A stretch of DNA of 64,000 bases from Chloroflexota bacterium (GCA_005880985.1 VBIQ01000006.1:5088-69087); one strand, 5' to 3'. Shown: positions 9,829 through 63,740, counted from the first letter of the stretch. A program made the numbers and translations. Notes: generated by a model not told the origin, from the sequence alone.

Positions 9829-9978
9829 AGGGCGCCCTTGTCGGCCTCGGGGGCGGGTGCACGGCGCCTTGGCCGATTCGCCTCGGGTCTCCCAGAGGCG
9901 AGAGCTGCTTGGCCGCTGGTCGGAGGCAATTTAAATACATTCTTGACTGCATGTATCATTGAGTGGTACAACCCGGCG

Positions 9979-10611
9979 ATGGTCACCGCAGCCCCCCGCC
10001 GAACCCAGGCGGAGCGCAGCGCCTCGACCCAGGCCCGCCTCCTGGACGCCACCGTGGAGTGCGTCGCGGAGCTGGGCTACCAGCGCACCACCACCACCGA
10101 GGTTGCCCGTCGGGCCGGCTTGACCCGTGGTGCTCAGCTCCACCACTTCGGCAGCAAGGCGGAACTGGTGACCAGCGCGCTCGCCCATCTCCATCAGCGG
10201 TACGACGCGGAGTTCCGGGCGGCCATGGCTGAGGTCAAGGCTGCCGGTGGCAATCCGCTGGAGGCCGCGGTCGACGTCATGTGGGGGCTGTACTCCACCC
10301 CCAGGCGGACGGCTTGGATGGAGCTCAGCGTTGCTGCCCGAACCGATCCCGAGCTGCGCAGCCGTATGGCCGAACTCCAGCGACAGTTCATGGCGAGCGC
10401 GCGCGAGACCTTCGCGGAGCTGTTCCCCGAAGCGGCGGCGGATCCGGAGTTCTCAATCGCTCCGTTGTTCACCTTCACGGTCCTCGACGGCCTCGCGCTG
10501 TGCCAGGCCGTGTCCCATGACGAGACCGAGGTACGCGCCGTTCTCGAGGCACTCAAGGCTGTCTCACGTCTCTTTGCGCCAGTCGACGCTGCCACCGGAG
10601 GAAGGAAGTGA
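9979..10611 (+). CDS. TetR family transcriptional regulator
   Basis: N-terminal HTH (RTTTTEVARRAGLTRGAQLHHFGSKAELV). ATG sits downstream of an AT-rich palindrome. The stop overlaps the next gene's start. Confidence 0.85.
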   Translation: MVTAAPRRTQAERSASTQARLLDATVECVAELGYQRTTTTEVARRAGLTRGAQLHHFGSKAELVTSALAHLHQRYDAEFRAAMAEVKAAGGNPLEAAVDVMWGLYSTPRRTAWMELSVAARTDPELRSRMAELQRQFMASARETFAELFPEAAADPEFSIAPLFTFTVLDGLALCQAVSHDETEVRAVLEALKAVSRLFAPVDAATGGRK

Positions 10612-11573
10612 GCACGATGGTGACCCCTCTCGCAGAGGAGCAGTCCGGCACCTGGGACAACTTGCTGGAGCGGTTGAACCGCCAATCGGTGCTCAAGCAC
10701 TTCGACGCCTACGTGGATGTGCCCTGGGATGAGCCCGGGTTCAGCATCGATCCGGCCGACTCGCGATGGCAGTTAGAGCCAGACCATCCCCTGGGTGCCA
10801 CCGACTGGTATCGGTCTCAACCCGCTGAAGTGCGGTCGCGAATCGGATTGCACATGATTGCCACTCAGATGAAGCTGGGTCTGCAGTTCGAGAGCGTTCT
10901 CAAGCGCGGACTGCTCGAATGGGCAGCGGATCTGCCCAATGGATCGGCGGCGTTCCGCTACGCGTACCACGAGGTGATCGAGGAAGCGCAGCATTCGCTG
11001 ATGTTCCAGGAGTTCGTCAATCGTGCCGGGTTCGACACTCCCGGCCTCTCGCGATTCTTGCGCTTCCAGGCACGTCAGGTCATCCGCCTGGGACGCAAGT
11101 TCCCCGAATTGTTCTTCGTGTTCGTGCTCGGCGGTGAGGATCCCATCGACCACGTCCAGCGAGTCGCGCTCCGGAACGGCGACTCACATCCATTACTGCT
11201 CCGCATCATGCGTATCCACGTCACCGAGGAGGCACGGCACCTGTCCTTCGCACGCCAGTACCTCAGGGATCGAGTGCCTCAGCTGAGCTGGCTGCGCCGG
11301 CAGCGGCTGGCGATCAACGCACCATTGATCCTTGGCGTGATGGCGCAGACGATGATGCAGCCGTCGCCGCAGATGGTGAAGGAGTACGGAATCCCGCGCT
11401 CAGTGATCCGTGCCGCCTACAAGGACAACCCGCGATATCGCCAGCAGGTGCTCGATTCGCTGCGTAAGGTCCGAGAGTTGCTGATCGAGCTGCGGCTGAT
11501 GACACCGATGACCCGGCCGATCTGGCGCCGGCTGCGAATCTGGGAGGCTGGCGCCACGGAGACCGCTGCCTAG
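10608..11573 (+). CDS. Diiron oxygenase of the AurF-like (p-aminobenzoate N-oxygenase-like) family
   Basis: Two ExxH motifs (EEAQHSLMFQE and TEEARHLSF) spaced as in AurF-type diiron carboxylate proteins. Translationally coupled to the TetR gene. Confidence 0.65.
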   Translation: MSTMVTPLAEEQSGTWDNLLERLNRQSVLKHFDAYVDVPWDEPGFSIDPADSRWQLEPDHPLGATDWYRSQPAEVRSRIGLHMIATQMKLGLQFESVLKRGLLEWAADLPNGSAAFRYAYHEVIEEAQHSLMFQEFVNRAGFDTPGLSRFLRFQARQVIRLGRKFPELFFVFVLGGEDPIDHVQRVALRNGDSHPLLLRIMRIHVTEEARHLSFARQYLRDRVPQLSWLRRQRLAINAPLILGVMAQTMMQPSPQMVKEYGIPRSVIRAAYKDNPRYRQQVLDSLRKVRELLIELRLMTPMTRPIWRRLRIWEAGATETAA

Positions 11574-11944
11574 ACGCCCACGATCTCGGCGCGTTCACCC
11601 CAGGCCATCGCCGCCATGGCGAGGGTTGTATGGTCGCGGCTTCAGCGGCCGCGGGTGAGCGATCTATTTGGCGCGGTTTGGACGCGCTCCTCCGGCCGAA
11701 TGGCGCACAGACTGCCCGCCCCCCGAGGAGCCTGTAGATCCGGAGCGGCCCGTCGCGGAGGGCGACCGGTGGGGGAAGCACCGTCGCGGAGAGAACCCTC
11801 TGAGACGCGCCGTGCAGGCGCGCTCGAAGAGCCGAGTCGACGCCGATAGGCGCCGGCCGGCGAGGGTGAACGCAGCGATGGTGCCTCCCCCACCCCGAGC
11901 CAACAGGGAACTAGCCGAAAGCGGAGCGACGCTACACTCCGAGC

Positions 11945-37614: not shown

Positions 37615-37737
37615 CTGCATGGCACAGGCGGGGGAGGGGTCTCCGCAGCGACGGCCCCTCCCCCGCCCAGCGCCAAGCGGCGGGTACTGCTGAGCAACCG
37701 CTTGCAACGCGCGGCCTTGGCGCAGCGAGGCCGGGGG

Positions 37738-54927: not shown

Positions 54928-54997
54928 GAGGGAGCGCAGCGGTGCGCCCCGCTGAGGCGCAGGGGCGGCCTCCGTCCGGGGAGACCGCCCCTGCTGC

Positions 54998-55501
54998 TCA
55001 TGGGGTGAGGGTGTTGATCGCCGACTGGACCGGAGCCGGCGGGGTGATGCCCATCACCGTCGTGGTCTTCCGGCGCGGAGCGCGGCTGGTCTTCCGGGCA
55101 GCCGCCGGCTTCTTCGCCCGCTTCGGCGCGGTCTTGCGCGGCGCCGCGACCCTGGAGACGGCACGCTTGGCGGTGGTCCGCTTGGCCGTGGTGCGCTTCG
55201 CGCTCCGCTTCGCCGAGCGCTTGGTCGCGCGCTTCGCCGTCGTCTTCTTCCGACCACCGCGGGCCGCGGTGGTCCGCTGCCCGGCCAGCTGCCGGCGGAG
55301 CCGCTCGTTCTCGCTGGCGAGCCTGCGGAGCTCGGCCCCGAGGATCCGCAGCGCCTGATCGGCTGCTCCTCCCAGCGCGCGGCCCGCGGGCGTCTTGGCA
55401 GCTCTGCGGCCCACCGCCCTCGCCGCACGCCTGACCGTCCCAGTCGCGCGCGCCGCCGCCTTGCGTGCGGTCGACTTGCGCCGCCGTGTCACTCGTGCCA
55501 C
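54998..55501 (-). CDS. Lys/Arg/Ala-rich basic protein with a central coiled-coil and histone-H1-like (AKRTTAKR) repeats
   Basis: GTG start preceded by GGGAGG. 168 aa and strongly basic. LRILGAELRRLASENERLRRQL coiled coil. Function unknown. Confidence 0.5.
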   Translation of the reverse strand: MARVTRRRKSTARKAAARATGTVRRAARAVGRRAAKTPAGRALGGAADQALRILGAELRRLASENERLRRQLAGQRTTAARGGRKKTTAKRATKRSAKRSAKRTTAKRTTAKRAVSRVAAPRKTAPKRAKKPAAARKTSRAPRRKTTTVMGITPPAPVQSAINTLTP

Positions 55502-55726
55502 TGCACTACCTCCCTGGGGTGCGGAGCACTCCGCACCAAAACGCGCATTACAGCACACGTGTGACAGAAACACACGCGCGCGAATGGCTCAGCGCGCGGC
55601 TGAGCTGGTGGTCGGGGCGATGCGGCGCGAGGCGTTGTGCGTCGTGCTGCCGCAGACCAACATCTGGGGCTCGGGCGTTCCGGTGCGCACCGTCGTCGCT
55701 GCGCGGCCCGGAAGCGAGGGCTGACG

Positions 55727-55820
55727 GTGGCGGGAAGGGAGGGATTCGAACCCTCGGAGGAGCTTGACACCCCTCACCCGCTTAGCAGGCGGGCGCTTTC
55801 GGCCACTCAGCCACCTCCCC
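55727..55820 (-). tRNA. tRNA-Ser (anticodon GCT)
   Basis: Reverse complement GGGGAGGTGGCTGAGTGG...anticodon stem CCCGC/GCGGG with loop CTGCTAA, long variable arm, GGTTCGAATCC T-loop, CCA end. Confidence 0.9.
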
Positions 55821-55913
55821 ACCAGGGTCGATCGAGTATACCGGCGCGCGCTCCGCGTTCTACCCATGCCGTGCTCGCTCGGCACCGTCGTGCGACACTC
55901 TCGCCGCCGGCGC

Positions 55914-56003
55914 GGAGGCATGCCGGAGCGGTTGATCGGAGCGGTCTTGAAAACCGCAAGGGCCGTCAAGCCCTCGGGGGTTCGAATCCCTCTGCCTCCG
56001 CCA
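55914..56003 (+). tRNA. tRNA-Ser (anticodon TGA)
   Basis: GGAGGCATGCCGGAGCGG...anticodon stem GCGGT/ACCGC with loop CTTGAAA, long variable arm, GGTTCGAATCC, CCA end. Confidence 0.9.
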
Positions 56004-56092
56004 GCGCCCCTTGATCGGCTCGCTGTTACCGAGGCGCTGCGGGCTCGGCGCCGCACCGGCCCTCTCCGATGTCGAGAAACCAACCAGTGTCC

Positions 56093-56123
56093 TTGACATC
56101 TCGCGGCGTCCCGTCCGTATACT
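56093..56123 (+). promoter_or_regulatory. Near-consensus sigma-70/SigA-type promoter (TTGACA ... TATACT)
   Basis: TTGACA at 56093-56098 and TATACT at 56118-56123, with a 19-nt spacer (or GTATAC at an 18-nt spacer). It drives a short transcript carrying a 5' hairpin and a mini-ORF. Confidence 0.5.
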
Positions 56124-56201
56124 GCGGCGGTCCTCGAAGGGAGGACCTCGGGAGGGACACATTTGCTCGCACATCGACCGCGTCGCACCGTCCGCTCGTG
56201 G

Positions 56202-56282
56202 ATGGCCGGACGAGTCGGCACGGCCTCTCTCACCCTGACGGCCGTCCTCTTCGTCGTCGGCGCCGCCATCGCCGCCCACTGA
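56202..56282 (+). CDS. Candidate 26-aa hydrophobic micro-protein (MAGRVGTASLTLTAVLFVVGAAIAAH)
   Basis: ATG about 80 nt downstream of the promoter above. Single TM-like helix. No convincing SD sequence. Speculative. Confidence 0.25.
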   Translation: MAGRVGTASLTLTAVLFVVGAAIAAH

Positions 56283-56683
56283 GACCGCTCAGCTCGCCGC
56301 CGGTCTGCTAGCGCCGGGTGGGGGAGGCGTCGTCGCTGCGGAGACCCGCGGTTCCGACGCCTTTGGCGTCGGCCCGCTGCGCTCGGCTCGCTCAGCTCGC
56401 CTGCGCGACGGTCTCCTCCGCGACGACGCCTCCCCCACCTCAGCCACAAGCGACAACGTGCTCAGCACCCCTCGCCCACGCGAAGCGCCGGTTCCGAAGC
56501 GCCGCTCCGCGATGAGTCGCGCGCCTCGCATCATGAGGGCGGAGGGGGCACGTCGCGGAGGAGGCCGTCGCGGCGTGGCGTGCAGCCGCGTCCGCGCCGA
56601 GCGAGTCGACGCCGGTAGGCGTCGGCCGCGTGCCGCCGCAGCGACGTGCCCCCTCCGCCCCCGGAACCGGCGCAGCCCCCGCT

Positions 56684-57868
56684 TCAGCCGAGAGCCGACC
56701 GCGGCGCGGAGGACACCAAGCCGGAGACGATCTCCATGGCCTCCTCGAGCCGCTCGCGCGGTGCCGTGAAGCAGATGCGGAGATGGCTCGGCATCCCGAA
56801 ACCGACGCCCGGCGCCACCAGTACCCGGCGGCGAGCGAGCGTCTGCACGAAGTCGAGGGTGTCGTCCCAGGGCGAGCGGGCCCAGAGGTAGAGCGCTCCG
56901 TCGGGGACGCCGAGGTCGAGGCCCGCCTCGCGGGCGCAGGCGACGGCGTGGTCGCGGCGCTCGACGTAGGGGAGGGTGTCGACCTGCCACACCGGCAGGT
57001 GCAGCAGCATCCGCTGCATGGTGGCGGGAGCGTTGACGAACCCGATCGCCCGCATGCACACCTCGAGAGCGCGGCCGATCTCCGGGGTCGCCAGCGCGGG
57101 ATGCAGCGCCAGGTAGCCGATGCGCTCGCCGGCGAGACCGAGATCCTTGGAGAACGATCGCGCCAGCACCGTGCGCGGGTGGAGTGCGAACGGGTCGACG
57201 CGACGCGCCGGAGGGTAGACCAGCCGGTGGTACACCTCGTCGACGATCAGCAGCACCGGGCCGCCGGCAACCGGCGCATGCTCCTCCAGCACCTCCGCCA
57301 GCGCCGCCATCTCCGATTCGTCGACCACATGACCACTGGGGTTGCAGGGGGTGTTGAGCACCAGGGCGCGGGTGCGCGGGGTGAGGGCGGCGGCAATGGC
57401 CTCGAGATCGAGCCCGCCGTCGTCACTCGGTGCCGCCGGGACGAAGGTCGCTCCGATGGTGTTGCAGTACGCCGGGTACTCACCGAAGTAGGGCGTGATG
57501 CCGACCACCTCGTCACCCACATCGACGAAGGCACGCAGCGCCAGGACCACCGCGGCACCGGCGCCGCCGGTCAGGATGATGGATTCGCGCTCCAGCCCCT
57601 CGACCCCCATGTGCGCGGCGACCCGCTCGCGCACCTCGGGAAAGCCGAGGTTGGGCATGTAGCCGAATCGCGCCCGACCGCGTTCGCTGGCCGCCGCCAG
57701 CAGCGCATCCCTGACCTCGGGGAGTGGCTCATCGAGGGGCTGTCCGAGAGCGAGGTCGACGACGGCGTCGTCGCCGAACTCGGCGCGCAACCGCTGTCCC
57801 TGGGCGAACATGCGACGCACCCAGCCTCCGGCCGCGACCTGGGCGCTGGCCCAGCGGGAGAGCGTCAA
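56684..57868 (-). CDS. PLP-dependent aminotransferase class I (aspartate/aromatic aminotransferase-like)
   Basis: Motifs NTPCNPSGHV and SFSKDLGLAGERIGY (PLP lysine). Its start overlaps the hmgA stop (ATGA). Confidence 0.85.
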   Translation of the reverse strand: MTLSRWASAQVAAGGWVRRMFAQGQRLRAEFGDDAVVDLALGQPLDEPLPEVRDALLAAASERGRARFGYMPNLGFPEVRERVAAHMGVEGLERESIILTGGAGAAVVLALRAFVDVGDEVVGITPYFGEYPAYCNTIGATFVPAAPSDDGGLDLEAIAAALTPRTRALVLNTPCNPSGHVVDESEMAALAEVLEEHAPVAGGPVLLIVDEVYHRLVYPPARRVDPFALHPRTVLARSFSKDLGLAGERIGYLALHPALATPEIGRALEVCMRAIGFVNAPATMQRMLLHLPVWQVDTLPYVERRDHAVACAREAGLDLGVPDGALYLWARSPWDDTLDFVQTLARRRVLVAPGVGFGMPSHLRICFTAPRERLEEAMEIVSGLVSSAPRSALG

Positions 57869-62873: not shown

Positions 62874-63740
62874 GTGTCCGGGCCCATCCTCATGGACGAT
62901 CCGTCCTCGCTGATCGAGGCCGTCACCCTGGTGCGGCGGCGGTTTGGGGCAGCGGCACTGCGGCGCGGCGGTGATCCGCTTCCCGAGCCCGCCTGGGTCA
63001 CCGGAGTGCCCGCGCTCGATCAGGGACTCGGCCAGGGCGGCCTCGTCCGCGGGCGGCTGACGGTGCTCGCCGGCGCCCGGTCACCGGTGACGGGGCGGCT
63101 GACGCTGCTGCAGGCGCTGGCGGCGGTGGCCAGCCGCACCATGCCGGTGGTCTACGTCGACCTGGTGGGGACGCTCGACCCCGGCTTCCTCGCCGACCTG
63201 GGGGCCGACCTCGACGCCTGCCTGGTGGTCCGTCCTCCCGGCGGCGATCTGGCGCCGGGATTGGTGATGGGATATTCCCTGGTCGCCGCCGGTGTGCCCT
63301 GGCTGGCGGTCGCCCTGCCCGTCCATCCCCAGCCGGCGTGGAGGCGGGCGGAACCGGCGCTGGCCGCGCTGGTGGCCACTGTCGAGGGGAGGCGGGCGGT
63401 GGCCTGTGTCGCCGCCCCGGCGCCGCTCGCCGCCCCTCTCGCCTATGCCTCGTCGCTGACGGTGACCTGCCGGTCACTGGGATGGCAGGAGGAGCACGAC
63501 GACGTGGTCGGGCTGCGCGTGGGTCTGGAGGTGGTGAAGAGCCGGGTGGGGACGCCGGGAAGTCAGGCCGGGGTGCTGCTGCGCTACCCGCGTCCGCACG
63601 GGACCGGCGAGGTGGTCGGCTTCCCGACGGTGGTCGGTCTGCCCGCCTCCCCCGACGGTGCGGGGGTCGCGGCCACCCTCGGACCGGAGGTCACCCCTGC
63701 CGTCGCGCCCGGTGGCGGTCCCGCCGTCGCCGCCGGGTAG
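62874..63740 (+). CDS. imuA': ImuA'-like inactive RecA-fold protein (SOS mutasome component)
   Basis: RecA-core-like GVPALDQGLGQGGLVRGRLTVLAG, but a degenerate P-loop (ARSPVTGRLTL instead of GxxxxGKT). VVYVDLVGTLDP strand follows. GTG start preceded by GGAAGGAG. Confidence 0.7.
   Translation: MSGPILMDDPSSLIEAVTLVRRRFGAAALRRGGDPLPEPAWVTGVPALDQGLGQGGLVRGRLTVLAGARSPVTGRLTLLQALAAVASRTMPVVYVDLVGTLDPGFLADLGADLDACLVVRPPGGDLAPGLVMGYSLVAAGVPWLAVALPVHPQPAWRRAEPALAALVATVEGRRAVACVAAPAPLAAPLAYASSLTVTCRSLGWQEEHDDVVGLRVGLEVVKSRVGTPGSQAGVLLRYPRPHGTGEVVGFPTVVGLPASPDGAGVAATLGPEVTPAVAPGGGPAVAAG

Follow-up and report, generated by a model that had tools for sequence, protein, structure and literature searches.

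The ERIC/IRU elements of Enterobacteriaceae are imperfect palindromes of ∼127 bp that lie in transcribed intergenic regions at moderate copy number and include internally deleted variants, and in all of this they are like the family described here; orientation-dependent effects on mRNA have been proposed for them. Correia/NEMIS-type MITEs also resemble it: they are 100–150 bp long, carry terminal inverted repeats, lie between genes, and are co-transcribed with their neighbors. REP units are 20- to 40-nt imperfect palindromes with a conserved GTAG 5′ of the hairpin base, and in the BIMEs of E. coli the REP types y and z1/z2 stand in inverse orientation, separated by linkers (PMC3333891). E. coli REPs have been reported both as 3′ UTR terminators and as mRNA stabilizers (bioRxiv 10.64898/2026.03.23.713779). 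The REPINs of Pseudomonas consist of two highly conserved inverted REP sequences (25-mers) around a middle that only needs to pair (PMC3116915). Detailed studies of REP/BIME, REPIN, and ERIC elements are limited to Proteobacteria and a few Firmicutes; the family described here comes from a phylum-level lineage without close cultured representatives.

The window, the whole 64-kb stretch of DNA analyzed here, is ∼71% GC and carries housekeeping genes (his and arg operons, aminoacyl-tRNA synthetases, GreA, and CoaX). Its proteins match those of a MAG labeled "Chloroflexi bacterium" at full identity, and the nearest named relatives are Candidatus Dormibacteraeota MAGs (57%–72% identity). Two palindromic elements, A (56317–56439) and B (56538–56659), lie in a non-coding gap of 401 nt (56283–56683) between convergent genes and come out on top when the inverted repeats of the whole window are ranked. 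We are highly confident that they belong to a lineage-restricted family of dispersed, strand-specific structured repeats. This family has not been described previously; it is small and scattered between the housekeeping genes of an uncultured soil bacterium.

The arms of element A (GGTGGGGGAGGCGTCGTCGC, at 56317–56336 and 56420–56439) are 20 nt long and perfectly complementary. They enclose an inner GGAGACC/GGTCTCC stem (56340–56346 and 56410–56416) and a CCGACGCC-TTT-GGCGTCGG hairpin (56354–56372). Element B has perfectly paired arms of 19 nt (GGCGGAGGGGGCACGTCGC, at 56538–56556 and 56641–56659) and a CGACGCC-GGTA-GGCGTCG hairpin (56607–56624). Folded singly as RNA, the elements reach −101 to −109 kcal/mol (z = −7.8 to −9.3), a stability matched by none of 200 shuffles; the values are −108.9 kcal/mol (z = −9.3) for A and −107 kcal/mol (z = −8.4) for B. 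The whole gap folds into two independent domains on either strand. The arm motif gives 5 matches against 0.1 expected. A and B are separated by a linker of 98 nt (56440–56537), which is unstructured and fast evolving. The original prediction had placed the features of A within 1 nt and, with approximate coordinates, those of B within 3–7 nt of these positions, and had put the gap at about 400 nt. It had described the two elements as tandem; an alignment to B is obtained only with the reverse complement of A, which makes them an inverted, head-to-head pair. The A/B locus is present in five other independent assemblies (L016, L026, L027, L028, and L029), so we reject an assembly artifact. Element B is flanked by the arms of a perfect 12-bp inverted repeat, GCGCCGGTTCCG/CGGAACCGGCGC (56485–56496 and 56662–56673), which are predicted to pair when the gap is folded in full; sister strain L026 has a disrupted right arm, so this repeat is probably not conserved.

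On the left, the gap is bounded by a 39-codon ORF (56163–56282, plus strand) whose stop codon lies 34 nt before A, and on the right by a class I/II aminotransferase gene (56684–57820, minus strand; PF00155, E = 1.6e-48) whose stop codon lies 24 nt after B. The aminotransferase gene is the last of an HPPD-HgmA-aminotransferase cluster and corresponds to a 378-aa gene call in sister assemblies. The 39-aa product, MLAHRPRRTVRSWMAGRVGTASLTLTAVLFVVGAAIAAH, has an arginine-rich N terminus, one hydrophobic helix, and a hydrophobic C terminus; its ORF has a strong GGGAGGG ribosome-binding site and is preceded by TTGACA-19 nt-TATACT at 56094–56124. All 6 of its substitutions relative to L026 are synonymous, so the ORF is a real gene, and its product is predicted to be a small membrane protein. 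It has no Pfam match, is absent from the gene calls of one assembly, and is like a type I toxin in shape. Two divergent tRNA-Ser genes with anticodons GCT and TGA (55728–55820, minus strand, and 55914–56003, plus strand) lie ∼300 nt upstream of the repeat pair. Toward the end of the window, a RecA_N-domain (ImuA-like) gene (62874–63740, plus strand) is followed, past the window end (L028 1–4051), by a gene for a 485-aa protein and a DnaE2-like DNA polymerase III alpha gene, a run that looks like an imuA-imuB-dnaE2 mutagenesis cassette. Exact-protein look-ups for two ORFs of the window and two members of the cluster returned no record.

The window holds two further members of the family. Element C (11768–11894, plus strand) is a solo full copy between an AurF-like gene and hisZ. 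The second, a core-deleted derivative (37627–37667, plus strand; inverted repeat I8 of the window), starts 13 nt after the coaX stop codon and consists of a 5′ arm, TCCGCAGCGACG, and a 3′ arm, with the 3′ junction motif retained. Aligned with A taken as the reverse complement relative to B, elements A, B, and C share a mean column identity of 79%. A covariance model built from three copies (R1) gives 111–117 bits for each element on one strand and 31–43 bits on the other, and over the family as a whole the covariance-model scores are 83–125 and 22–43 bits. The family therefore has polarity: A is in the sense orientation on the minus strand (111.4 versus 43.4 bits) and B on the plus strand (115.9 versus 31.5 bits), with their 5′ ends, or heads, facing each other. 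The model match of A, 56312–56444, adds ∼6 nt per side. Element C scores 117.4 bits, and the core-deleted derivative scores 32.9 bits, with model positions 26–111 skipped. A weak model match at 54950–55003 is an unrelated simple hairpin and was rejected; the GC-rich hairpin there (54961–54993, CAGGGGCGG...CCGCCCCTG) lies between a PPIase gene and the next gene and is no family member.

We searched for members elsewhere with a strict junction pattern, CGTCGCGGAG-N60-90-CGCAGCGAYG-N1-4-CCYCC. Among JGI metagenomes, true members occur at four places: the window's own locus and three loci on large contigs of one soil metagenome (L013, L014, and L021), each with two copies, for six further copies in total. 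The same pattern gave 8 matches in 185,579 GTDB species genomes, all of which were rejected by the covariance model, so that this set yielded no true member. A looser pattern, which doubles as a control for chance matches, gave 23 matches in IMG/VR; the model rejected all of them, and the element is therefore not phage borne. A second model (R2), built from 11 sequences, found no extra or diverged members in 243 kb of fetched loci, including 31 kb from relatives at 65%–81% protein identity. In the next relatives (81% identity for hisZ, 65% for the aminotransferase), the corresponding sites have other gene neighbors and no family member. Considered together, these searches make the family look confined to one narrow lineage. 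Against Rfam 15, only tRNAs in the window pass gathering thresholds, and for 56250–56720, searched at E up to 10, the best E values of 3–6 are at chance level.

All copies share a three-way junction fold on one strand. The unit is ∼123 nt long, or ∼135 nt with short conserved stretches just outside the basal stem, and comprises a basal stem (P1), the junction, a stem (P2), a hairpin (P3), and a second hairpin (P4-P5). P1 is a ∼20-bp helix, G rich on its 5′ side and C rich on its 3′ side, variable in sequence with complementarity kept: 97% of it is paired, and 8 of its 20 pairs covary. The junction, CGTCGC-GGAG ... CGCA-GCGAYG, is invariant and holds a symmetric internal loop. The loops GUGCA and GRUA are also conserved, as are the unpaired nucleotides of junction and loops. 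K-turn, hammerhead-like, and riboswitch readings of this fold were dropped, given the symmetry of the internal loop, the lack of an Rfam match, and the unrelated gene contexts.

The fold is supported by covariation in an alignment of 11 sequences, of which 9 are paralogous copies and 2 are orthologs that are not independent of them. Standard pairs occupy 92.7% of the pair cells, and double, compensatory changes are seen in 14 of the 47 pairs. Covariation scores 0.277, compared with 0.10 in shuffles, and none of 500 shuffles reaches this value. As a register control, sliding the 3′ partner by 1–3 columns lowers pairing to 32%–60%. In the well-aligned helices P1 and P5, G·U pairs outnumber A·C mismatches by 15 to 3, and the sense strand folds 3–8 kcal/mol more stably than the antisense strand; both observations suggest that what counts is pairing in single-stranded form, on the sense strand. 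DNA parameters predict the same fold (z = −7.7 to −9.9), and RNA and single-stranded DNA are therefore not distinguishable here. We note that the perfect complementarity of the arms need not reflect selection on an RNA, as intrastrand templated repair of quasi-palindromes could also produce it.

The units are modular, with three types of core and two types of basal stem, alpha (GGYGGGGGAGGYG..) and beta (GGCGGAGGGGGCAC..). Core T1 is found in A, in the plus-strand copy of L013, and in the minus-strand copy of L014; T2 in B, in the minus-strand copies of L013 and L021, and in the plus-strand copy of L014; and T3 in C and in the plus-strand copy of L021. A and C carry alpha stems, and B carries a beta stem. 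Cores of the same type are 93%–99% identical across loci, whereas the identity of the stems attached to them can be as low as 57%–65%, although the two arms of any one stem still complement each other. Core and stem are therefore combined independently of each other. In 4 of 4 pairs, a minus-strand copy is followed by a plus-strand copy with the 5′ ends facing the linker, and each pair combines two different core types, one alpha stem, and one beta stem; with n = 4, this is an observation and not a law.

Between model matches, the linkers of the pairs are 87–249 nt long and only partly alignable; those of the pairs other than A/B measure 142–249 nt. A second, different palindromic repeat (GCAGGCCCGCTCGCTGCACTGCCGAC...) occurs in two of them in opposite orientations (L014 5926–5951, plus strand; L021 559–584, minus strand) and is absent from the window. 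A GGCAAGAG...CTCTTGCC hairpin lies in the linker of L013. Several hairpin modules are thus combined, mosaic-like, in these intergenic regions.

The sole close relative compared, with both elements, is sister strain L026, whose aminotransferase is 98% identical in amino acid sequence to that of the window. Between the two strains, element A differs by 4.1% and element B by 0.8%, compared with 7.4% at codon position 3 of the aminotransferase gene, 16.3% in the A-B linker, and 21%–24% in the flanks between stop codons and elements; linker and flanks (16%–24%) are the fastest-evolving parts of the locus. The difference in divergence between the elements and unstructured intergenic DNA is significant (Fisher p = 4.6e-8). 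One basal-stem pair of A is T-A in one strain and C-G in the other, a compensatory change, and a G-to-A change gives a wobble pair only on the sense strand. We conclude that A and B have descended vertically at this position, kept alike either by selection or by homogenization. The low divergence could stem from gene conversion among copies instead of functional selection.

The flanking genes are housekeeping genes, mutually unrelated across the five loci. Besides the convergent pair around A and B, they are the AurF-like gene and hisZ around C (same strand), genes for an HtrA-like protease and MoeA in L013 (same strand), genes for a protein without assigned family and an inositol monophosphatase in L014 (convergent), and genes for an endo/exonuclease-phosphatase family protein (weak match) and a PNP-family phosphorylase in L021 (same strand). 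Units start 13–50 nt after a stop codon, with the exception of solo element C, which starts 195 nt after the AurF-like stop. At same-strand loci, the unit ends 45–76 nt before the next start codon, and a −10-like TACACT or TATACT box lies just 5′ of that codon. Two such hexamers, at 11927–11932 (hisZ) and L021 ∼815–820 (PNP-family gene), stand 6–9 nt before the ATG with no Shine-Dalgarno sequence between, which suggests leaderless mRNAs in this lineage. Between a TPR gene and hisZ, the window has a TetR gene, the AurF-like N-oxygenase gene, and element C (9838–11944). In the relative with an 81% identical HisZ (L030 5267–6237), the TPR gene adjoins hisZ across a 37-nt gap, and element C therefore sits at the edge of a difference in gene content.

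The best overall explanation, to which we assign a probability of roughly 0.55, is a lineage-restricted, BIME-like repeat family whose units act as 3′ UTR hairpins that limit read-through or decay. Since the units lie 13–50 nt after stop codons and before the promoter of the next gene, they are most likely part of the 3′ UTRs transcribed from the genes on either side. A fold this stable would hold back 3′ exonucleases, read-through, or both without the help of a U-tract, and would thereby insulate neighboring transcription units. The role as stable hairpins in 3′ UTRs, which we infer by analogy and from position and fold, is in itself an even bet. One feature sits awkwardly with it. Given the minus-then-plus order, whichever flanking gene is transcribed, its RNA runs through an antisense unit before it reaches a sense one, which is not the simplest design for a 3′ UTR element. 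Pairs also occur between same-strand genes (L013 and L021), which would need just one orientation. Pairing therefore looks like a feature of the repeat and not of the genes.

How the family spread bears on a rather unlikely alternative, a selfish, non-autonomous mobile element of REPIN or MITE type, copied by a trans-acting transposase, for example a HUH/Y1 enzyme acting on folded single-stranded DNA, with any effects on transcripts incidental. Copies with near-identical cores dispersed at unrelated loci, the existence of a core-deleted derivative, and a fold that is equally strong with DNA parameters would all be expected of such an element, and the invariant junction motif could serve as a protein recognition site. 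The inverted heterotypic pairs are also like those of BIMEs, which are substrates of TnpA_REP on single-stranded DNA (PMC3333891). The borders and surroundings of the copies argue the other way. We found no target-site duplications or shared target motif at the borders of 9 copies, no transposase gene across the 64 kb of the window and the 26 kb surrounding the remaining copies, and no Y1 transposase (TnpA_REP/RAYT) gene among the ORFs scanned in the window, L013, L014, L021, and L028. As for an autonomous IS sharing the termini, pattern scans of genomes and viral contigs gave only chance matches, and no transposase lies beside the metagenome copies. The arms covary between copies and thus form no fixed terminal inverted repeat, which argues against a transposase that reads a fixed double-stranded one. 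A and B have also been inherited at one position by two strains and have diverged far less than the DNA next to them, and the one sister lineage compared shows no presence/absence polymorphism for them.

In the preferred reading, the family would have spread and been homogenized among intergenic sites by a process acting on the folded single strand or by gene conversion. By analogy with TnpA_REP on BIMEs, a protein working on the folded strand could recognize the invariant junction. Gene conversion of cores and intrastrand templated correction of arms may be alternatives to such protein-driven spread. A stronger version of this reading, which we regard as unlikely, is an independently evolved BIME-like system: a three-way-junction RNA or single-stranded DNA unit, its junction read by a dedicated protein (a domesticated HUH-type enzyme or an RNA-binding factor), with the obligate alpha/beta head-to-head pair as the functional or replicative unit.

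In a third, improbable explanation, the units are independently transcribed structured small RNAs that diverge from the linker between the heads and act in trans or bind protein. Strand polarity with a G·U excess on the sense strand, the conserved loops and junction, and 5′ ends that face the linker in every pair are compatible with this. Against it, no sigma-70-like promoter was found in the linker, no motif is conserved 5′ of the unit 5′ ends across loci, and the linker is among the fastest-evolving parts of the locus and only 98 nt long. Moreover, solo copy C and the core-deleted copy lack such a linker, and no Rfam family matches.

Simple bidirectional terminators for two convergent genes, with no family-level biology, are more improbable still. 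Very stable hairpins 24–34 nt after both stop codons, filling the gap between convergent genes, do fit this description, but the dispersed conserved copies already largely refute it. The same three-helix cores recur elsewhere, including between same-strand genes, and conservation extends to the unpaired positions of their junction and loops, for which a generic hairpin terminator has no use. A terminator scan of 55600–57000 returned 0 terminator-like sites, and no T-run follows any copy in either orientation, the flanks reading CCCGGCG, CCCGGAA, and TCAGCC. With no T/U-tract after the GC-rich hairpin, a canonical intrinsic terminator is ruled out, and any termination would be non-canonical. 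Sites that work at the level of DNA, as cruciforms or as binding sites for nucleoid proteins, gyrase, or recombination, analogous to chromosome-structuring roles proposed for BIMEs, are highly improbable: long perfect arms capable of cruciform extrusion and a BIME-like organization would suit them, but a double-stranded site would not give strand-asymmetric G·T wobbles over A·C, and recent work on a model REP in E. coli found no role for it in the nucleoid (bioRxiv 10.64898/2026.03.23.713779).

The suggestion that the two elements belong to a repeat family and are not simple terminators is borne out by further copies in the window and at three unrelated loci, by one covarying three-way-junction fold common to all of them, by the missing T-runs, and by conservation in the sister strain; the elements are neither unique in the genome nor unconserved. 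Of the accompanying label, "REP/MITE-like or a structured RNA," the MITE part is not supported, and REP in the strict sense fails on unit size and on GTAG; the closest analogy lies in how BIMEs are organized.

On present evidence, the family is an ordinary genome feature, a set of dispersed intergenic palindromic repeats, and not a new kind of system. Its covariance model and invariant junction motif offer a handle for annotating Dormibacterota-like MAGs, for locating operon ends, and for searching for a partner protein. Its higher-order grammar is that of BIMEs, with polar units, discrete types, and heterotypic inverted pairs, but the unit is far larger and branched. An independent origin of this grammar would suggest that repeats of this kind are shaped by some general constraint or mechanism; candidates are the avoidance of long perfect inverted or direct repeats and the substrate needs of a single-strand-specific enzyme.

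Like BIMEs, the repeats are intergenic, lie in 3′ UTR positions, and consist of polar units arranged mostly in inverted heterotypic pairs (4 of 4, besides one solo and one core-deleted copy) with variable linkers, and differences between unit types preserve complementarity. In contrast, there is no sequence similarity to BIMEs, and the host is a Chloroflexota/Dormibacterota-like soil bacterium. Nor is the unit a REP: it is 123 nt long, with three helices beyond the basal stem and a three-way junction, rather than an imperfect hairpin of 20–40 nt. GTAG does not stand 5′ of the stem base, where the flank reads ..GA|GG in 8 of 9 copies; it occurs only inside the P5 loop of T2 and T3 cores and is absent from T1. 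Because the organization is BIME-like while sequence and size differ, we treat the relationship as an analogy of organization, not as family membership.

The family shares with REPINs a long hairpin of ∼100–150 nt, compensatory changes across the hairpin, and dispersed intergenic copies. Its conservation runs in the reverse direction, with outer arms that vary and covary and an inner core and junction conserved in three discrete types, and on these grounds (8 of 20 arm pairs covarying, cores 93%–99% identical within type) REPIN membership is ruled out. So is membership of the MITEs, since the borders of 9 copies carry no direct repeats and the arms differ between copies. Relative to Correia/NEMIS elements in particular, there is no target-site duplication, the arms are not a fixed transposase-binding sequence, and no parent insertion sequence was found. 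To our knowledge, ERICs show no heterotypic inverted-pair organization, and they are unrelated to the family in sequence and phylum. Integron attC sites are ruled out by the lack of AAC/GTT core sites (RYYYAAC/GTTRRRY) and by inverted pairs with no cassette between them, and membership of an Rfam 15 family by the lack of any score at the gathering threshold. In the way it works, the family is comparable to REP/BIME, ERIC, and REPIN elements, yet it belongs to none of them.
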